Shown: positions 2,248-61,095 of the stretch, in pieces
Numbering within the stretch: position 1 is the first letter of the stretch
How the letters are laid out: each line of letters opens with the position of its first letter
Origin: Parcubacteria group bacterium Gr01-1014_8
GTDB taxonomy: Bacteria; Patescibacteriota; Minisyncoccia; Phycocordibacterales; UBA2100
DNA length: 64,000 nucleotides
NCBI GenBank assembly: GCA_007376385.1
Contig: VMGC01000002.1
Location: 1 to 64,000 of the forward strand
Direction: 5' to 3'
Translations under genes and position numbers: made by a program
The notes under the pieces: generated by a model
What the model was told of the DNA's origin: nothing
Databases searched by the model: none
What the model saw: the letters and a program-made list of their open reading frames with translations, nothing else

Positions 2248-3086
2248 TTGAGTTCAGTTTGTCCACAGCATAAAAACCATCAAGGCGACGCCTTGATGGT
2301 TTTTGCTATTATCCGGGAATGGCATTGCGTCGTCAGTCATTTGAAATCGACGAATGGTACCACTGTTACAACCGGGGAATCGATAAGCGTGCGACTTTTA
2401 AGTACGGGCACGATTACGAGCGTTTTCTGCAACTTCTATACCTCTGTAATGCAAAAGAGCCCGTTCATCGCAGCAATTTGACGGCTCGGACTACAAAAGA
2501 GGTTATGAATGTGCCTCGGCAGGCGGAGATTGTATCCATAGGGGCGTATTGTCTTATGCCTAACCATTTTCATTTGCTCGTGAAGGAAAAAACAATTGGT
2601 GGGATCACAGCATTTATGCAGCGTCTTGGCACGGCATATACAATGTATTTCAATATTAAGCATGGTCGTATAGGAAATCTTTTCTATAAACCGTTTCGAT
2701 CTCGGCATGTGATTGACGACAGATATTTCCAGAGGGTTGTTGAGTATTTACACTGTAATCCCGCGGAGCTTTTTGAAGTCAACTGGAAGCAGGGTGTTGT
2801 TAAAGATATGCAGGCGCTTGAAAAAAGAATCTCATCGTATCGATACTCAAGTTTTTCGGATTATCACGAGGAGAAGCCACGTTCGGAGCGGGTAATACTA
2901 TCGCCCGAAGGATTTGAGATCGCAAACGTACGACCTCTTCGACAGATGCTCGGAGAAGCTCGTGCATATTATGCGGATATTGCAATTGATGAAGCAACTT
3001 CGAAAACCATCAAGGCGTCGCCTTGATGGTGGGGTCGCCTTGAGGCTAGAAATGACGGGGTTTTACGTATCACCGTATTTTGGACA
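2247..3086 (+). mobile_element. IS200/IS605-like (RAYT-like) insertion carrying a single HUH Y1 transposase gene
   Basis: An 840-bp segment between 35-bp direct repeats. A subterminal perfect palindrome AAAACCATCAAGGCG-A-CGCCTTGATGGTTTT lies near the left end (about 2268-2298). A near-identical imperfect palindrome lies at the right end (about 3008-3036). The single ORF has the HUH motif. Confidence 0.6.
2319..3026 (+). CDS. IS200/IS605-family (Transposase_17 / RAYT-like) HUH tyrosine transposase
   Basis: 235-aa ORF. It has the HUH motif (YCLMPNHFHLLV) and a downstream YxxxNP tyrosine motif (VEYLHCNPAE) typical of TnpA(IS200) and REP-associated tyrosine transposases. Confidence 0.8.
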   Translation: MALRRQSFEIDEWYHCYNRGIDKRATFKYGHDYERFLQLLYLCNAKEPVHRSNLTARTTKEVMNVPRQAEIVSIGAYCLMPNHFHLLVKEKTIGGITAFMQRLGTAYTMYFNIKHGRIGNLFYKPFRSRHVIDDRYFQRVVEYLHCNPAELFEVNWKQGVVKDMQALEKRISSYRYSSFSDYHEEKPRSERVILSPEGFEIANVRPLRQMLGEARAYYADIAIDEATSKTIKASP

Positions 3087-9734: not shown

Positions 9735-10021
9735 TATAACCCCGTGAGATAGTTACGCACTATTTTTAATGCGCGTCTTTATATATCGTTTGCCCCAAGC
9801 AGTTTTAAGATATTTTTCTCGAATGTGCGCGTCCTTAATCGAGGTGGATGCCTCGTAGTAAACAAGTTGCCACGGACCCCTATTTTTTGTTGAGAATACT
9901 TTGTTGCTGTTATGAAGATTGAATCTTCGGCGTAAATTATTCGTAGAGCCCACATAAAACTGCTTGGGGCCACGAATTACATACACATAGTACATGTACC
10001 TAATTATCTCACGGGGTATAA
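9735..10021 (-). mobile_element. TIR-bounded mini-element carrying only a GIY-YIG nuclease gene (TIR CCCCGTGAGATA / TATCTCACGGGG; 5-bp TSD TATAA)
   Basis: The left TIR core is at 9740..9751 and the right TIR core at 10005..10016. TATAA flanks both sides (9735..9739 and 10017..10021). The paralogous empty site at 7181..7210 contains a single TATAA. Confidence 0.6.
9753..9995 (-). CDS. GIY-YIG nuclease family protein (stand-alone URI domain, approx. 80 aa)
   Basis: MYYVYVIRGPKQFYVGSTNNLRRRFNLHN... shows the GIY-YIG signature (YVY..FYVG/YIG, R, H/N). It occupies almost the whole interior of the TIR element. The stop codon abuts the left TIR. Confidence 0.85.
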   Translation of the reverse strand: MYYVYVIRGPKQFYVGSTNNLRRRFNLHNSNKVFSTKNRGPWQLVYYEASTSIKDAHIREKYLKTAWGKRYIKTRIKNSA

Positions 10022-17747: not shown

Positions 17748-18308
17748 ATGACACTTATCATCACACTTGGCGCAGCTGCGGTTTTGGTTCTTTGGGTTAT
17801 TTATGCATATAACCGACTTATTCAACTTACTAATCGCGGCGAGGAAGCGTGGTCGGATATCGACGTTCAATTGAAGCGCCGTTACGACCTCATTCCGAAC
17901 CTTGTGGAAGCAGTGAAAGGTTACATGACGCACGAAGCAGGAACTTTGCAGAAAGTGACCGAAGCCCGCACGAAAGCAATGGGCGCGCAGTCGGTTGGTG
18001 ACCACGCGGAAGCGGAAAATATGTTGACTGGCGCATTGAAGTCTTTGTTCGCAGTTGCGGAGAGTTACCCGGACTTGAAGGCGAATACGAACTTTGTTGA
18101 ATTACAACGAGAGCTGTCGGATACAGAAAATAAAATTCAAGCGGCTCGCAGGTTCTACAATTCTGTCGTGCAAGACCTTCAGAACGCACTTGAGTCATTC
18201 CCATCGAATATCATAGCCTCTTCATTTGGTTTCAAGACACGAGAATTCTTCACATTGTCGGAATCAGAGGCGGCTGCAGCAAAAGAGCCTGTGAAAGTTA
18301 GTTTTTAG
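17748..18308 (+). CDS. lemA: LemA family protein
   Basis: 186-aa ORF with an N-terminal TM segment and a conserved LemA core (YNRLIQLTN...RRYDLIPNLVE...RRFYN). Confidence 0.85.
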   Translation: MTLIITLGAAAVLVLWVIYAYNRLIQLTNRGEEAWSDIDVQLKRRYDLIPNLVEAVKGYMTHEAGTLQKVTEARTKAMGAQSVGDHAEAENMLTGALKSLFAVAESYPDLKANTNFVELQRELSDTENKIQAARRFYNSVVQDLQNALESFPSNIIASSFGFKTREFFTLSESEAAAAKEPVKVSF

Positions 18309-18331
18309 CCACTAGGGTATAGCCACTAGGG
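18309..18331 (+). repeat. left imperfect inverted repeat (tandem GCCACTAGGG units) flanking four-helix-bundle gene
   Basis: ccactagggtatagccactaggg is reverse-complement-related to 18713..18738 (ccctataccctaatggctaatggcta). Confidence 0.45.
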
Positions 18332-18334
18332 CGG

Positions 18335-18694
18335 ATGCAAACGTACAAAGATTTAATTGTTTGGCAACGGGGTGTCCAACTCGTGACTTCGGTGTACCAG
18401 TTGACAGAGAAATTACCCAAATCGGAAATATTTGGATTGACAAGCCAAATGCGACGATCAGCAGTTTCAATTCCCGCAAATATTGCCGAGGGGTATGCGC
18501 GCAAACATCGTGCGGAATATATCCAGTTCTTGAGAATTGCATATGGTTCGGGAGCGGAACTCGAGACACTCATGATAATCATTCAAAATTTAAGATATGC
18601 AAAAGGATCTGATATCAGAGAAGTCTCGGATTTACTAGATGAGACGATGCGCATGTTAAACAAGTTTATTTCATCGCTTACTCAAAAAACTTAA
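18335..18694 (+). CDS. four-helix-bundle protein (TIGR02436 / 23S rRNA intervening-sequence protein family)
   Basis: 119-aa ORF showing the family hallmarks (KDLIVWQ..., SIPANIAEGY.R....FL.IA.GS..E). Confidence 0.8.
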   Translation: MQTYKDLIVWQRGVQLVTSVYQLTEKLPKSEIFGLTSQMRRSAVSIPANIAEGYARKHRAEYIQFLRIAYGSGAELETLMIIIQNLRYAKGSDIREVSDLLDETMRMLNKFISSLTQKT

Positions 18695-18712
18695 TTTGCA
18701 TTTAACGCTAAA

Positions 18713-18738
18713 CCCTATACCCTAATGGCTAATGGCTA
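18713..18738 (+). repeat. right imperfect inverted repeat flanking the four-helix-bundle gene (overlaps the htpX start)
   Basis: See 18309..18331. Confidence 0.45.
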
Positions 18739-20217: not shown

Positions 20218-20239
20218 ATATACCGATATATCGGTATAT
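20218..20239 (+). promoter_or_regulatory. perfect 22-bp palindrome ATATACCGATATATCGGTATAT, 3' of the TrpR-like gene
   Basis: Self-complementary. A second copy of the 20-bp core is at 20682..20701. Confidence 0.55.
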
Positions 20240-20251
20240 GCTAGATGAGAG

Positions 20252-20671
20252 TCATCTAGAGCGACGCGATCTAAGCTCCCGAATTCTTTTAGCGTGACGC
20301 GGTCCGGCTATTGATGGCATACCCGCAGAAAGAAATATCTCCAGCGTTTCAAGAAACGAAATATCCGATCTCTTGCCTGTTATCGCATTGCGAATGGGAT
20401 CAAACATGCCTGCCAATAATCTACGATGTAAGCGTTTGATGGTTGAAGTACTTACTTTGAGGGTTTTTTCAATCCGATAGTAGGAGAAATCCTTTTCAAG
20501 CATCACGATGATCGCAAAACGCTTTGCCAGCATGACCTTTTCTGTCGAGGTAAGGAGAGACTGGAGCAACGGCTTGCCTCTATCTGCAGACGTAAAAAAA
20601 GCATTCATCAAGTTGTTGTTAATGCGGTTCTCAATCTTTCTATTCATTGTGTATTTTGATACATGAGTCAT
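20252..20671 (-). CDS. TrpR/YerC-YecD-like HTH DNA-binding protein
   Basis: 139-aa ORF. The helix-turn-helix region (TEKVMLAKRFAIIVMLEKDFSYYRIEKTLKVSTSTIKR) resembles the Trp repressor/YerC family. Confidence 0.55.
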   Translation of the reverse strand: MTHVSKYTMNRKIENRINNNLMNAFFTSADRGKPLLQSLLTSTEKVMLAKRFAIIVMLEKDFSYYRIEKTLKVSTSTIKRLHRRLLAGMFDPIRNAITGKRSDISFLETLEIFLSAGMPSIAGPRHAKRIRELRSRRSR

Positions 20672-20681
20672 ATGTTGCTAT

Positions 20682-20701
20682 TATACCGATATATCGGTAT
20701 A
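20682..20701 (+). promoter_or_regulatory. second copy of the perfect palindrome TATACCGATATATCGGTATA, 11 bp upstream of the TrpR-like gene start (candidate auto-operator)
   Basis: Identical 20-mer core to 20219..20238. Confidence 0.55.
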
Positions 20702-20752
20702 TAGTACTAGTGTCTTTTGAAAAACATTGCTCTGTGACTATACTGCCGTTTT

Positions 20753-26383: not shown

Positions 26384-26838
26384 CTGCGCTGGGTAGTCGC
26401 CCCGTGAGATAATTGCTCAGATATGTACTACGTGTACGTGCTTTGGGGCAAGGGGTATCTGAAGTTGCGTATCAAACATAGGGAGTAACTATCTCACGGG
26501 GAGGAAAGTCCGGGCACAGGCCCTTTTTGGGCAGCAGGGTAGCGGGTAACGCCCGTACGCCGCAAGGCGAGAGGTGCGAACAGAGACGCTTCCGACGAAA
26601 GGTAGGAAGCATCTCCGAAGGTCGAAAGGCTCTTGGAGACGAGCTCTTCAGGCGACTGGAGAGGTGCAACGGCAAAATCCTTACTTCTGTGCAAGACCGT
26701 GTCCAGTTGGGGTTTTATTCAATTGATAAAACTTCATCTGGAAGAGTCGCTAGAGGTGAGCGGTAACGCTCATCCTAAGATAAATGACTGCACATTCCGT
26801 CTTAGACGGAAGGACAGAACCCGGCTTATAGGCGCAGC
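26384..26838 (+). ncRNA. rnpB: RNase P RNA (bacterial type A-like)
   Basis: It contains the conserved CR-I AGGAAAGTCCGGGC (26501-26514) and CR-V ACAGAACCCGGCTTA (26815-26829). The ends are approximate. Candidate P1/P2 pairing is CTGCGC (26384-26389) with GCGCAG (26832-26837). Confidence 0.75.
26400..26501 (+). mobile_element. copy of the CCCCGTGAGATA/TATCTCACGGGG TIR element (102 bp, no ORF, no TSD) at the RNase P RNA P3 position
   Basis: The TIR cores are at 26400..26411 and 26490..26501. The right TIR abuts AGGAAAGTCCGGGC. Confidence 0.55.
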
Positions 26839-27240
26839 GAAATGAGCGAGGCGAAAAAGCCTCGCTTTTTCGTATCCGAATGAGCAAGCCTAGGAGCGTA
26901 GCGATATAGACGCAGACAGACAGGCGAAGCAGAAATGCTTCGCTTTTCTGCTTCGGAGCAAACGTTAGATCCAGCGAAATGAGCGACCAATTTTTGTTGG
27001 CCGCAGACGTTACAAAAATGGGAGTGCCCCTGTGGTGCGAAACGAAAAAGCTTTGCTTTTTCATTTCCGAATGAGCAAGCTTATATGAGCCTTGGCGAAT
27101 TGAGGCGCAGCGCAGCGAGCAACGCAAACGAGTGTTGCTCGTTTGCGTTTGAACCAGCAAGTTTGGGAGCGTAGCGATATAGCACGCAACAAAAAAGTCA
27201 GCTCGGAAGGCCTCACCTCTTCTTTTTTTCGTATGTTAAA
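26836..27240 (+). repeat. hairpin-rich degenerate tandem repeat region
   Basis: These units repeat: GCGAAATGAGCGA (26837, 26953); CGAAAAAGCYTYGCTTTTTC..TCCGAATGAGCAAGC (26852, 27047); GGAGCGTAGCGATATAG (26893, 27164). There are several 9-10 bp stem hairpins. Confidence 0.6.
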
Positions 27241-41983: not shown

Positions 41984-42086
41984 TATACCCCATGAGATAA
42001 ATACATTGAAATTAACCGGGCAACTCGAATATATCTACACAAAAGATAACTGCAAAAAACACCACATGACTATCTCACGGGGTATA
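41984..42086 (+). mobile_element. ORF-less copy of the CCCC(A/G)TGAGATA/TATCTCACGGGG TIR element (95 bp) with 4-bp TSD TATA
   Basis: TIR cores at 41988..41999 and 42071..42082. TATA is at 41984..41987 and 42083..42086. The right end sits 9 bp upstream of the ABC transporter ATG and creates a TATACT -10-like box. Confidence 0.6.
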
Positions 42087-55747: not shown

Positions 55748-55876
55748 TATGACCCCGTAACGAAATGTGCCTTAGGCTTGAACATCATATGAAAACAAAT
55801 CACCAAAACGGACAAATCAACAAAGTCGAACTTTATCTGTCGAGGATAGCAAGCGAAATGCGAAAGCGCAGGTTTC

Positions 55877-56025
55877 GCATTTCCGAGCGACACAGACAGC
55901 AAAGGTTTAAAACCCCGCGGCTTGCCTGCCTGTGCGATGCACGCAGACAGGCCGCGGAATTTGGGAAACGAGCAGCGCTCGTTTTCCAGAGTCCAGGGCT
56001 TGCCCTGGGGGTTGAAACCTTTCAT
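55877..56025 (+). repeat. REP-like repeat copy 1 (with nested GC-rich palindrome insertion)
   Basis: It shares gcatttccgagcgacRcagacagcaaaggtttaaaaccccgcggcttgcc ... gggttgaaacctttcat with 63362..63433. Copy 1 carries an extra approx. 77 bp holding three hairpins. Confidence 0.7.
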
Positions 56026-56084
56026 CCGACCACGCCGCGGCAGCCGGCAGGCGTCTGCCGCAAAGGCACATTTTCTAACGGAGT

Positions 56085-57911: not shown

Positions 57912-58019
57912 TATACCCCGTGAGATATGTATAAAAAAGGCATCTTAACTAGCTGATTATTCATTTGAATTTATAGATTGTGATGAGAAATTTGGAGTGT
58001 ACCTATCTCATGGGGTATA
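57912..58019 (+). mobile_element. ORF-less copy of the TIR element (100 bp) with 4-bp TSD TATA
   Basis: TIR cores at 57916..57927 (CCCCGTGAGATA) and 58004..58015 (TATCTCATGGGG). TATA is at 57912..57915 and 58016..58019. Confidence 0.6.
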
Positions 58020-60989: not shown

Positions 60990-61095
60990 TTGACCCCGTG
61001 AGATAAACATGGTGACGTTCGAGTCGAACATGTGGTTTTGTTGTGGCTCTCAAGCACCGCCTAACAATAAGGAATGGGTTATCTCACGGGGTTGA
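60990..61095 (+). mobile_element. ORF-less copy of the TIR element (98 bp) with 4-bp TSD TTGA, in the ftsA-ftsZ intergenic region
   Basis: TIR cores at 60994..61005 and 61080..61091. TTGA is at 60990..60993 and 61092..61095. Confidence 0.6.

Follow-up and report, generated by a model that had tools for sequence, protein, structure and literature searches.

A minimal GIY-YIG nuclease gene inside a conserved 12-bp inverted repeat: a candidate selfish hairpin cassette shared by Parcubacteria and other bacterial phyla

The window analysed here, a stretch of 64,000 nucleotides from Parcubacteria group bacterium Gr01-1014_8 (contig VMGC01000002.1), contains five units bounded by the same 12-bp inverted repeat, one of which, copy 1, encloses an intact GIY-YIG nuclease gene. 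On balance, copy 1 is probably, though by no means certainly, an intact member of a widespread selfish "hairpin cassette" family, in which a minimal Slx1/UPF0213-type GIY-YIG gene sits within a strictly conserved 12-bp inverted repeat and mobilises itself. Judged by their sequences, gene and arms travel together across phyla.

Copy 1 is compact and precisely delimited. The initial annotation had described a 277-bp segment with perfect 12-bp terminal inverted repeats, a TATAA direct repeat around it, and a minus-strand GIY-YIG ORF filling the interior with its stop codon against the left arm. The coordinates of the arms and of the TATAA repeat proved exact, and the ORF was confirmed, with one base between stop codon and arm. 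The features of this locus are as follows:

9735–9739, no strand: left flank TATAA, a direct repeat of 10017–10021
9740–10016, no strand: copy 1 unit, 277 bp, perfect 12-bp arms around the 80-aa GIY-YIG ORF
9740–9751, no strand: left arm CCCCGTGAGATA, 1 nt downstream of the stop codon of the minus-strand ORF
9753–9995, minus strand: GIY-YIG nuclease ORF, 80 aa, Slx1/UPF0213-like minimal lineage, catalytic core intact
9792–9807, no strand: first arm of the inner stem, GCCCCAAGCAGTTTTA, inside the ORF, pairing with 9955–9970
9955–9970, no strand: second arm of the inner stem, TAAAACTGCTTGGGGC, inside the ORF
10005–10016, no strand: right arm TATCTCACGGGG, which equals CCCCGTGAGATA on the ORF strand, 9 nt upstream of the ATG
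10017–10021, no strand: right flank TATAA, within TATAAT, 8 nt before the ATG of a 2389-aa gene

The TATAA flanks could have arisen by duplication of a target site, or could extend the inverted repeat by TATA. The inner stem is 16 nt long and 100% complementary, and the fold of copy 1 has z = -6.9; in all CPR units of the PKQFY type this stem is conserved and its synonymous sites are frozen. Arm geometry matches copy 1 in L119 and L125, and both CPR homologues tested (P0009 and P0084) have a geometry identical to it. Allowing up to one mismatch, the arm 12-mer has 10 matches in the window against 0.21 expected, a number reached by 0 of 100 shuffles, and these matches form exactly five inverted pairs.

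The single ORF of copy 1 is a GIY-YIG domain (Pfam PF01541, E=1.4e-14) and lies outside the recognised transposase classes (DDE, HUH, serine and tyrosine). A profile search with the protein matched only 1ZG2 (2.2e-9), 1YWL (5.5e-6) and an SLX1 homologue (1.7e-3); by these matches it belongs to the "minimal" Slx1/UPF0213 lineage and not to the UvrC/I-TevI lineage. The homologue search returned 633 homologues. Residues Y3, Y5, Y14, G16, R24, H28 and E48 are invariant in homologues across phyla, as is a basic C-terminal segment, and the family proteins measure 80–87 aa with no accessory domains and no DNA-binding domain. The minimal Slx1/UPF0213 family is held to consist of housekeeping repair enzymes of mostly vertical descent, and selfish GIY-YIG proteins are thought to derive from the UvrC/I-TevI lineage (PMC1564403). 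A phage origin or a role as a defence system was rejected: viral contigs had no arm pairs, PHROG gave no match, and PADLOC gave weak partial matches only.

Searches for the arms, restricted to 60–90 nt spacing, located them in 116 genomic and 32 metagenome stretches from unrelated projects, the genomic ones from at least eight phyla: Planctomycetota, Verrucomicrobiota, Omnitrophota, Ignavibacteria, Bacteroidota, KSB1, Saccharibacteria and Parcubacteria. The initial annotation had suggested checking whether GIY-YIG homologues elsewhere are flanked by these repeats; they are, both in other CPR lineages and in other phyla, where homologues bracketed by the same 12-mers have 51–57% identity. The right arm in non-CPR genomes encodes the C-terminus of the protein, YLTG-stop. 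Because the arms of the non-CPR units L067, L069, L061 and L100 agree at 12 of 12 positions while their proteins are only 51–56% identical (53–56% by tblastn), and the right arm is coding, the synonymous sites there must be frozen.

The other four units of the window carry no intact ORF:

26384–26842, plus strand: RNase P RNA gene, bacterial type A, host of copy 2 (RF00010, 97.9 bits, E=1.6e-30)
26400–26501, plus strand: copy 2, 102 bp, P3 helix of RNase P RNA, flanks GTCG and AGGA
41988–42082, no strand: copy 3, 95 bp, no ORF, left arm CCCCATGAGATA, flanks TATA and TATA
57916–58015, no strand: copy 4, 100 bp, no ORF, right arm TATCTCATGGGG, flanks TATA and TATA
60994–61091, no strand: copy 5, 98 bp, no ORF, perfect arms, flanks TTGA and TTGA

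Four such ORF-less pairs had been reported, each with a 4-bp duplication. The pairs exist, two of the four with one mismatch in one arm (the right arm of copy 4, TATCTCATGGGG, pairs as a G.U wobble), but the 4-bp repeat flanks only three of them (TATA, TATA and TTGA); its absence at copy 2 is explained by the place of that unit as the P3 helix of the RNase P RNA gene. Copy 3 sits 12 nt upstream of an ABC-transporter gene. The interiors of copies 3–5 are unrelated to copy 1 and to one another, and at the orthologous intergenic site of copy 5 in L039 a unit is likewise present with an unrelated interior. Since the short copies of the window share no interior, they are not a recently amplified MITE family; among unit interiors overall, 100 of 130 are singletons.

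A profile search of six-frame translations of 133 short units detected ORF remnants in only 4, and in none of the shuffled controls. The proposition that all short units are decayed ORF units was therefore rejected, with 129 of 133 free of any ORF remnant, although such decay is proven for some, including copy 2. The related claim of a lineage-private MITE family spawned by copy 1 also falls, given the unshared interiors, the separate descent of copy 2 described below and the rarity of ORF remnants. What endures of the earlier picture of gene plus arms as a mobile unit with ORF-less derivatives is that the unit is conserved and mobile-looking and that its decay yields ORF-less forms. Rfam scans of the units gave no family, introns included, whether the gathering threshold or E<=1 was applied. 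The right flanks TATAAT and TATACT near start codons had made a mobile promoter or terminator a candidate, which was rejected: a consensus scan found no sigma-70 promoter using the unit flanks and no intrinsic terminator, with the proviso that CPR promoters may differ.

The clearest record of decay is at the RNase P RNA gene. Copy 2 is an in-frame remnant of a GIY-YIG ORF (MYYVYVLWGKGYLKLRIKHRE) on the RNA strand, in which a deletion has removed the inner stem. Intact ORF-bearing units occupy the identical junction in L125–130 and in 13 metagenome contigs. The P3 junction in 32 metagenome contigs holds 13 intact ORF units, 4 pseudogenes, 7 hairpins of 50–64 bp and 8 bare arm hairpins, which by their sequences line up as a decay series from ORF to pseudogene to short hairpin to bare 24-bp palindrome. 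The ancestry of copy 2 lies in the lineage that resides at this P3 junction and not in copy 1. Proteins of two subtypes are found at P3, and on clustering the proteins of intergenic units and of P3-resident units are interleaved. The P3 series could be largely the vertical inheritance of one old insertion. Copy 2 also brings the RNase P RNA of the window below the RF00010 gathering cutoff of 100 bits, so that such genes are likely missed by annotation pipelines; the P1/P2 pairing of this RNA was assigned by hand.

Structured RNAs are hosts beyond this one gene, and in many CPR lineages helix P3 of RNase P RNA has a gene for a protein inside it. Rfam aligns the arms in L143 with stems P3 and P12 of RNase P RNA and those in L106 with a helix of 16S rRNA, and places the second L044 unit in the P15–P17 arm. 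The sites comprise the tips of RNase P RNA helices P3, P12 and the P15–17 arm, a 16S rRNA helix, the 5' edge of tmRNA genes (with three interior families), intergenic DNA and, occasionally, coding sequences, which units enter in frame (L012, L034, L099 and L115). At orthologous sites (copy 5 and L039; the tmRNA site) the arms are perfect, and neither the interiors nor the intergenic DNA around the units can still be aligned. Compensatory arm changes occur in L106 (CCAC/GTGG) and L067 (CCCG/CGGG), along with wobble variants. The arms do pair, and where a unit sits in a structured RNA they are modelled as the helix. Bare arm palindromes, candidate targets of the nuclease, also occur. Reconstructed empty sites with a 3–4 bp repeat often fold strongly (L025/L107, L048, L054, L092 and the tmRNA site); as a sign of insertion into hairpins, these predicted folds are suggestive only. 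A stricter rule, that units always insert in loops of pre-existing hairpins, was rejected, the whole-class difference from mismatched-flank controls being small (-5.17 vs -4.51 kcal/mol).

Comparison of related sequences provides filled and empty sites, a check that the initial annotation had proposed. L106 is filled where the approximately 98%-identical L044 has a plain P3 of RNase P, an exact hairpin-for-hairpin replacement, and in L066 a unit separates two genes whose spacing in the window is 3 nt. The same check came back negative within the window's own population, where three contigs from two samples showed no polymorphism and copies 1 and 3 were identical in both samples. L030 contains two units that differ at one base and have different outer flanks, and it is the only clean case of a duplicated unit among the apparent bursts: the L017/L019 triplet and the pairs in L065, L012/L034 and L075/L081 were rejected as recent bursts because they lie in paralogous or duplicated host segments. 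In both L030 and L072, complete hairpin units lie on both sides of the nuclease gene.

A mechanism for a self-mobilising cassette can be outlined from these observations. The nuclease, probably a dimer or an SLX1-like structure-specific enzyme, would recognise the palindrome or hairpin made by the arms and cut it. With a filled copy as template, repair would then place the gene between two half-sites, which would amount to homing into bare arm palindromes, the arms being a split recognition site. New loci would arise now and then when a unit inserts ectopically, at another hairpin or an AT-rich site, sometimes with 3–4 bp duplications. A structured RNA would tolerate the insertion, with no need for splicing, since the arms restore a helix, much as in rRNA intervening sequences. 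Decay of the ORF, in CPR partly through loss of the conserved inner hairpin, would leave ORF-less hairpins such as copies 2–5. We offer only tentatively the broader proposal that the cassette belongs to a class of prokaryotic mobile elements not seen before. Its sole enzyme would be a minimal Slx1-like GIY-YIG protein recognising its own 24-bp split palindrome, and it would spread by homing and ectopic insertion and survive within essential structured RNAs (RNase P RNA, rRNA) and coding sequences by re-forming a helix in place of splicing.

Several points weigh against a selfish cassette. An 80-aa catalytic domain without a DNA-binding domain is an unusual sequence-specific enzyme, and an arm match of 12–16 bp offers little homology for recombinational homing between sites that are not allelic. 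GIY-YIG nucleases such as I-TevI and Eco29kI leave short 3' overhangs; such overhangs do not obviously predict 3–4 bp duplications, and the junctions are heterogeneous. The 129 of 133 short units that are free of ORF remnants could be an independent non-coding partner, not decay products, and perfect arms at orthologous sites with saturated interiors could reflect a host-level function.

An unlikely, though far from negligible, rival is a classical terminal-inverted-repeat transposon, with the GIY-YIG protein as transposase, a fixed 4-bp duplication and the short units as MITEs moved in trans. Perfect arms bounding a single gene, units in many unrelated contexts and the near-identical units with differing outer flanks in L030 are what such an element would produce. 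A uniform target-site duplication is not established, since the junctions fall into three classes, with no duplication at structured-RNA sites. In CPR the class is TATA|TATA, found on both sides in 16 of 21 CPR-type units, and copy 1 has TATAA; this pattern would suit the transposon, but TATA is its own reverse complement as well as the usual CPR flank, and is therefore indistinguishable from a 4-bp extension of the inverted repeat. The non-CPR class is TTYA|TRAA, in which TRA is the gene's own stop codon; the 48 units with this pattern on both sides have no duplication outside the 4-mers. The remaining class favours the transposon, with non-palindromic 3–4 bp direct repeats in 15 of 44 units against approximately 0.9 expected; the direct repeats abutting arms include TTGA (copy 5 and L048), CTGA, CTGG, CGGG and TGTA. 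Against it, sites in structured RNA, including that of copy 2, have no duplication, and the unit replaces the helix exactly. The unshared, mostly singleton interiors are unlike MITE bursts, and one site has been reoccupied by different interiors and protein subtypes, a homing-like behaviour. A transposase of the GIY-YIG type is not known (PMC1564403).

Quite improbable, in our assessment, is a host-beneficial or domesticated system like REPIN-RAYT, in which the hairpins serve the cell as RNase III sites, RNA-stabilising helices or protein-binding sites and the gene is a vertically inherited caretaker. This reading would account for arms that stay perfect at orthologous sites despite diverged interiors and intergenic DNA, for arms that by structural modelling serve RNase P RNA and 16S rRNA as genuine helices, and for the fixation of the units in the window's population. 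The prokaryotic Slx1-like lineage is, moreover, considered mostly vertical (PMC1564403), and the window also has a RAYT-like gene with hairpins on either side, which shows that systems of this kind exist in this genome. What speaks for horizontal spread instead is a 12-mer that is identical across at least eight phyla and patchily distributed, and the frequent pseudogenisation or deletion of P3 ORFs implies that the gene is dispensable once inserted. Units also interrupt coding sequences and match no Rfam family, and the simple scan detects neither promoters nor terminators in them. An ordinary housekeeping GIY-YIG gene that has inverted repeats around it by chance or through faulty assembly, a reading for which nothing speaks except the small size of the feature, can be dismissed on the excess of arm matches, the identical structure in two independent samples and the presence of the arms in 116 genomic and 32 metagenome stretches from unrelated projects.

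If the selfish-cassette reading is correct, it links the large, unassigned minimal GIY-YIG family (UPF0213/Slx1-like) to a concrete and testable selfish lifestyle, and would give part of the enigmatic UPF0213/YhbQ family its first biological role. The 12-bp sequence, identical from Planctomycetota to Parcubacteria and partly coding, is an unusually clean candidate recognition site. The cassette also suggests how mobile DNA in general might persist in essential structured RNAs without splicing, and it would explain many uncharacterised short insertions in CPR RNA genes, including some of those already reported from CPR rRNA genes. In those genes, non-intron insertions encoding GIY-YIG and 23S_rRNA_IVP proteins have been described, with all of the GIY-YIG proteins in neither group I nor group II introns and most insertions at the top or base of stem-loops; the text of that report contains no mention of inverted repeats, palindromes or hairpins (PMC11270868). 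Its GIY-YIG insertions are probably the same element as the hairpin cassette. In line with the suggestion that no prokaryotic transposon class of this type had been described, a full-text literature search, in which subscription journals were thinly covered, found no description of the arms or of a GIY-YIG-associated repeat family.

Among known systems, MITEs and terminal-inverted-repeat transposons share with the cassette their terminal inverted repeats and presence/absence polymorphism between related genomes, but the short copies of the cassette are not near-identical deletion derivatives of an autonomous element in the same genome. Rickettsia palindromic elements (RPE) and Correia elements are likewise short palindromic units that lie in intergenic DNA, RNA genes and in frame in coding genes, and can abut promoters. 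Neither RPE nor Correia elements are known to have an enzyme gene of their own, and both are confined to particular lineages, whereas the cassette has an autonomous-looking, gene-bearing form and termini common to several phyla. UPF0213/YhbQ/Slx1-like proteins (1ZG2, 1YWL), the best and only profile matches, agree with the cassette protein in size, fold family and conserved motifs; the present clade is embedded in a mobile hairpin cassette, and the others are regarded as vertical repair enzymes (PMC1564403).

REPIN-RAYT resembles the cassette in having a small nuclease gene between its own inverted palindromic repeats, which are also dispersed as gene-less hairpins of approximately 100 bp and persist long-term at orthologous sites. 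It differs in that the cassette enzyme is GIY-YIG and not an HUH/Y1 transposase, that the cassette repeat is identical across phyla and the REPIN repeat lineage-specific, and that cassette units lie inside structured RNA genes and coding sequences, with gene copies that multiply and decay. At 2319–3026 the window has a distinct RAYT-like gene, accompanied by hairpins of its own.

Homing endonuclease genes (I-TevI, I-BmoI) similarly have a GIY-YIG nuclease as the sole gene of a selfish insertion, reoccupy the same site in conserved essential genes across lineages and pass through a series of invasion, degeneration and loss. The cassette protein differs in its Slx1/UPF0213 lineage and lack of a DNA-binding domain; the cassette has no intron or intein, Rfam scans of the units giving no intron match, and tolerance comes from helix re-formation; and the cassette also occupies many non-homologous sites, with no arm pairs in viral contigs. 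The rRNA intervening sequences are, like the cassette, stem-loops bounded by inverted repeats that replace or extend the helix tip of a structured RNA, some with a small ORF and many short and ORF-less, scattered across phylogeny. The cassette is distinguished from them by a bounding repeat that is a specific 12-mer, invariant across phyla and tied to a GIY-YIG gene, by hosts that extend to RNase P RNA, the tmRNA edge, intergenic DNA and coding sequences, and by a documented decay series and filled/empty pairs. The behaviour of the cassette resembles that of rRNA intervening sequences and homing endonuclease genes at least as much as that of a cut-and-paste transposon.

The window contains five units, each running from one 12-bp inverted repeat (arm) to its partner; copy 1 bears an ORF and copies 2-5 do not. 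The arms, TATAA flanks and minus-strand GIY-YIG ORF of copy 1 were confirmed in the sequence at the coordinates of the initial annotation.

9740-10016: copy 1, 277 bp, left arm CCCCGTGAGATA at 9740-9751, its reverse complement as right arm at 10005-10016, flanks TATAA/TATAA
9753..9995, minus strand: copy 1 ORF, GIY-YIG domain (PF01541, E=1.4e-14), occupying the whole interior
9792-9807 / 9955-9970: inner stem
26400-26501: copy 2, 102 bp, no flanking repeat
About 26384-26842: RNase P RNA gene that hosts copy 2
41988-42082: copy 3, 95 bp, flanks TATA/TATA
57916-58015: copy 4, 100 bp, flanks TATA/TATA
60994-61091: copy 5, 98 bp, flanks TTGA/TTGA

The arm 12-mer (at most one mismatch) has 10 matches in the window against 0.21 expected, and these form exactly five inverted pairs. 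All five units fold far more strongly than shuffled sequence (z = -6.9 for copy 1, -4.3 to -5.3 for copies 2-5). Copy 2 matches both ends of the copy 1 ORF, with 79% identity over 63 nt in the opposite orientation, and encodes an in-frame ORF remnant, MYYVYVLWGKGYLKLRIKHRE; the interiors of copies 3, 4 and 5 resemble neither copy 1 nor one another. All four ORF-less arm pairs reported earlier are present, with the 4-bp flanking duplication in only three, and the description of copy 1 as an autonomous MITE parent with 4-bp target-site duplications was only partly right, failing on the missing duplication at copy 2 and on the unrelated interiors of the short copies. These interiors, together with window copies that are fixed and identical in two samples, argue against recent activity in the window. 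The copy 1 feature is real and non-random, and its scope is more interesting than had been proposed. An intergenic 22-nt imperfect inverted repeat at 55752-56084 (ACCCCGTAACGAAATGTGCCTT / AAGGCACATTTTCTAACGGAGT, 289 nt apart) starts arm-like (ACCCCGT) and could be either a unit that has diverged or a separate element.

A 'putative endonuclease' from Parcubacteria group bacterium Gr01-1014_8 matches the copy 1 protein exactly. The protein has 633 homologues; among the 120 listed, most are 80 aa long and 64-79% identical, and the named ones are all Patescibacteria. From Candidate Phyla Radiation (CPR) through Planctomycetota-type homologues, residues Y3, Y5, Y14, G16, R24, H28 and E48 do not vary, nor does the segment REKYLKxxWGxRYxKxR. 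Against solved structures, the family profile matched only UPF0213 proteins (1ZG2, 2.2e-9; 1YWL, 5.5e-6) and one SLX1 homologue, and we therefore assign the protein to the Slx1-like 'minimal' GIY-YIG lineage. In the standard survey, members of this lineage count as putative repair enzymes that are inherited vertically, and selfish GIY-YIGs are traced to the UvrC side (PMC1564403).

A scan with the pattern CCCCGTGAGATA-N60-90-TATCTCACGGGG, covering one genome per species, found 116 stretches in Planctomycetota, Verrucomicrobiota, Omnitrophota, Ignavibacteria, Bacteroidota, KSB1, Calditrichia, Saccharibacteria and many Parcubacteria, a far broader distribution than first supposed. Gene-arm linkage, which the initial annotation had suggested checking in homologues, was found as well: at four retrieved non-CPR loci (L067, L069, L061, L100) the same 12-mers bracket genes for GIY-YIG proteins with 51-57% identity to the window protein. 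Here the right arm belongs to the reading frame (TAT CTC ACG GGG TRA, a conserved Y-L-T-G-stop C-terminus), and 0-22 nt separate the left arm from the ATG downstream of it. All synonymous arm positions are identical while the proteins share only ~55% identity, which shows that selection acts directly on the nucleotide sequence, as DNA or as RNA. Both CPR homologues retrieved (P0009, P0084) reproduce the window geometry exactly, with arm, 10 nt, ATG, the remaining ORF to its stop, 1 nt and arm, 278 bp in all. Elsewhere, complete short units lie on either side of the GIY-YIG gene (L030), a short unit directly follows it (L118, L094), or tandem 41-bp arm hairpins flank it (L072 2934-3403, from a MAG labelled 'Gammaproteobacteria'). 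The 41-bp hairpins consist of the arms plus GAGCTCGCAGAGCTCGC, three in tandem with ACAA between them, and where one hairpin meets the next, the right arm, the 4 nt and the left arm together form another perfect hairpin.

Copy 2 lies exactly between the P2 5' strand and GGAGGAAAGUCC (P4) of RNase P RNA, the position of helix P3, and because of this insertion the gene scores 97.9 bits against an Rfam cutoff of 100. The 5' end of the gene (26384-26842) is likewise mis-modelled because of the 102-bp unit, and RNase P RNA genes with such units are likely under-annotated in CPR genomes. The intact, ORF-bearing P0084 unit has the identical P3 junction in another CPR lineage, and a metagenome scan for this junction (query TATCTCACGGGGAGGAAAGTCC) yielded 32 contigs whose P2 sequences differ. 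These form a decay series: 13 of the 32 carry 276-281 bp units with intact 80-82 aa ORFs, 4 carry full-size pseudogenes, 7 have units of 50-64 bp, and in 8 bare arms close a 2-16 nt loop as P3. The RNA strand carries every intact P3 ORF and the copy 2 remnant, and this remnant (…WGKGYLKLRIKH…) is like the P3-resident lineage (…WGKRYLKLRIKHSV) and unlike copy 1 (…WGKRYIKTRIKNSA). At L143 the Rfam RNase P model (293.8 bits) aligned the arms as the P3 stem, with a second unit as distal P12, and L044 has another unit in its P15-P17 arm. Two units, in P3 and distal P12, were seen in some CPR RNase P RNAs (L143 3732-3791, L145 4786-4844, L161 751-810), and L125 additionally carries, in the P15-17 region (about 2480-2600), an insertion of ~100 nt whose ends resemble degenerate arms. 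More than one helix of a single RNase P RNA can thus be colonised, indeed several.

Helix replacement was also found in 16S rRNA, where a unit in L044 and L106 replaces a helix that in the consensus already has CCCC…GGGG at its base. A unit adjoins the tmRNA 5' end in seven CPR genomes (L085, L108, L113, L058, L086, L073, L020), with three unrelated interior families at one position; in an eighth case (L047) it lies about 105 bp upstream. In the abutting units, part of the arm GGGG provides the first G residues of tmRNA. When the empty site is reconstructed, a small hairpin can form between the left flank CAGCCGGT and the 5' sequence of tmRNA. Verrucomicrobiota carry units inside an RHS/YD-repeat-like coding sequence with in-frame read-through (…VNNLH|PVRY…MLSHG|VNELTN…; L012 2622-2716, L034 2407-2501, L099 7263-7357, L115 7667-7761), reminiscent of Rickettsia palindromic elements. 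Three similar units of one genome (L017 6801, L019 3363 and 6617) each follow closely on a conserved gene start, 'ATGATTGGTAAAACTATTTC' (MIGKTISH…), of the kind usual in Ser/Thr-kinase-like paralogues, reflecting either repeated targeting of one motif or host-segment duplication.

Several observations speak for movement. The proposed search of related genomes for filled and empty sites yielded two pairs. In Bacteroidota, the P3 of L106 is a unit whose arms show compensatory change (CCAC…GTGG), and the same boundaries in L044, ~98% identical, enclose a plain hairpin of 20 nt. L066 carries a unit between two genes whose window orthologues lie 3 nt apart. Two units of L030 differ by one base and have different outer flanks. 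The P3 occupants comprise two structural subtypes, a PKQFY type and a DGxxY-like type (L152/L156), and proteins of intergenic units (window copy 1, L119) nest among P3-resident proteins. Junctions fall into three classes. CPR intergenic units read (G)TATA|…|TATA(C), which could be read as a TATA duplication or as an inverted repeat of 16 bp; TATA is missing from their P3-resident relatives, which favours a target-derived origin. Non-CPR units read TTYA or CTYG|…|TRAA or CRAG, with the gene's stop codon within the right 4-mer and the left 4-mer mirroring it; the two sides showed no co-variation, and no duplication was found outside the 4-mers. Among the other units, 15/44 have non-palindromic 3-4 bp direct repeats (about 0.9 expected), and when their empty sites are reconstructed, many of these are hairpins. 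In RNA genes the unit takes the place of the distal helix without duplication. Given this heterogeneity, integration may involve more than one route. The direct repeats speak for the cut-and-paste transposon with MITEs of the initial annotation; the RNA-gene and TTYA/TRAA junctions and the unrelated interiors speak against it, and we consider it doubtful.

The arms pair: compensatory changes that arose independently in L106 and L067, and several wobble variants, preserve the pairing. At the tmRNA orthologous site the arms are perfect although the interior and surrounding intergenic DNA are unalignable, and the same holds between copy 5 and its orthologous site in L039. CPR PKQFY-type genes contain an inner 12-16 bp stem in which G-PKQFY codons pair with LKTAWG codons; every CPR PKQFY-type member keeps the synonymous sites of this stem frozen, and the non-CPR type lacks the stem. 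Without the inner hairpin copy 1 would measure 98 bp, and the deletion in copy 2 matches, which suggests one route from 277-bp to ~100-bp forms. Across all retrieved DNA, arm-to-arm spacing is discrete (0-20, 35-40, 70-79 and 250-259 nt), the 70-79 nt class being partly an artefact inflated by the search pattern. A host-beneficial system like REPIN-RAYT would explain arms conserved in situ, but ORF decay and a 12-mer identical across phyla make it distinctly improbable.

The best-supported reading, towards which the balance tips slightly, is a selfish hairpin cassette that is copied, tolerated and decaying. Its own Slx1-like nuclease would act on the arm palindrome or hairpin, and the cassette would be copied into bare arm palindromes, each arm being one half of a divided symmetric site. 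The cassette might occasionally enter new sites that are hairpins or AT-rich; in structured RNAs it would be tolerated because the arms restore the helix, and after insertion it would decay. Within this picture, the linkage of gene and arms, the spread across phyla, the replacement of helices, the decay series and the filled/empty pairs are direct observations; recognition of the arms by the nuclease and the way of copying are inferences.

Other small genes bounded by repeats lie in the window. A 235-aa ORF (2319..3026, plus strand) with a weak Y1 transposase match (PF01797, RAYT/IS200-like) has the same 28-nt hairpin palindrome on each side (2276-2303 and 3003-3030). The whole region, 2276-3030, resembles a REPtron, here within a CPR genome. 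At 18305-18732 a 119-aa 23S_rRNA_IVP gene (PF05635, 18335..18694), outside any rRNA gene, is bracketed by an 18-nt inverted repeat (TTAGCCACTAGGGTATAG / CTATACCCTAATGGCTAA); the whole cassette is missing at syntenic L066 (977-1087; gap 110 bp vs 457 bp), and it is a second kind of inverted-repeat-bounded small gene with presence/absence variation. A 139-aa ORF (20252..20671, minus strand) within 20218-20702 has an identical 21-nt palindrome, ATATACCGATATATCGGTATA, on both sides; these could be operators or another cassette.

The closest described systems are rRNA intervening sequences (IVSs), GIY-YIG homing endonuclease genes, REPIN-RAYT systems and Rickettsia palindromic elements. Non-intron GIY-YIG-encoding insertions and short ORF-less insertions have been catalogued in CPR rRNA genes, with no mention of inverted repeats, palindromes or hairpins (PMC11270868). 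Full-text searches over an incomplete set of papers turned up no account of the arms or of a repeat family tied to Slx1-like GIY-YIG genes. The element departs from known systems in defining traits: unlike intron- or intein-borne genes it has no intron or intein, unlike REPIN-RAYT no HUH transposase, unlike transposons no recognised transposase class, and unlike Rickettsia palindromic elements it is not orphan. There is a substantial chance that it represents a genuinely new class of mobile element, and we rate the copy 1 family as akin to IVS-like or homing-like selfish cassettes.
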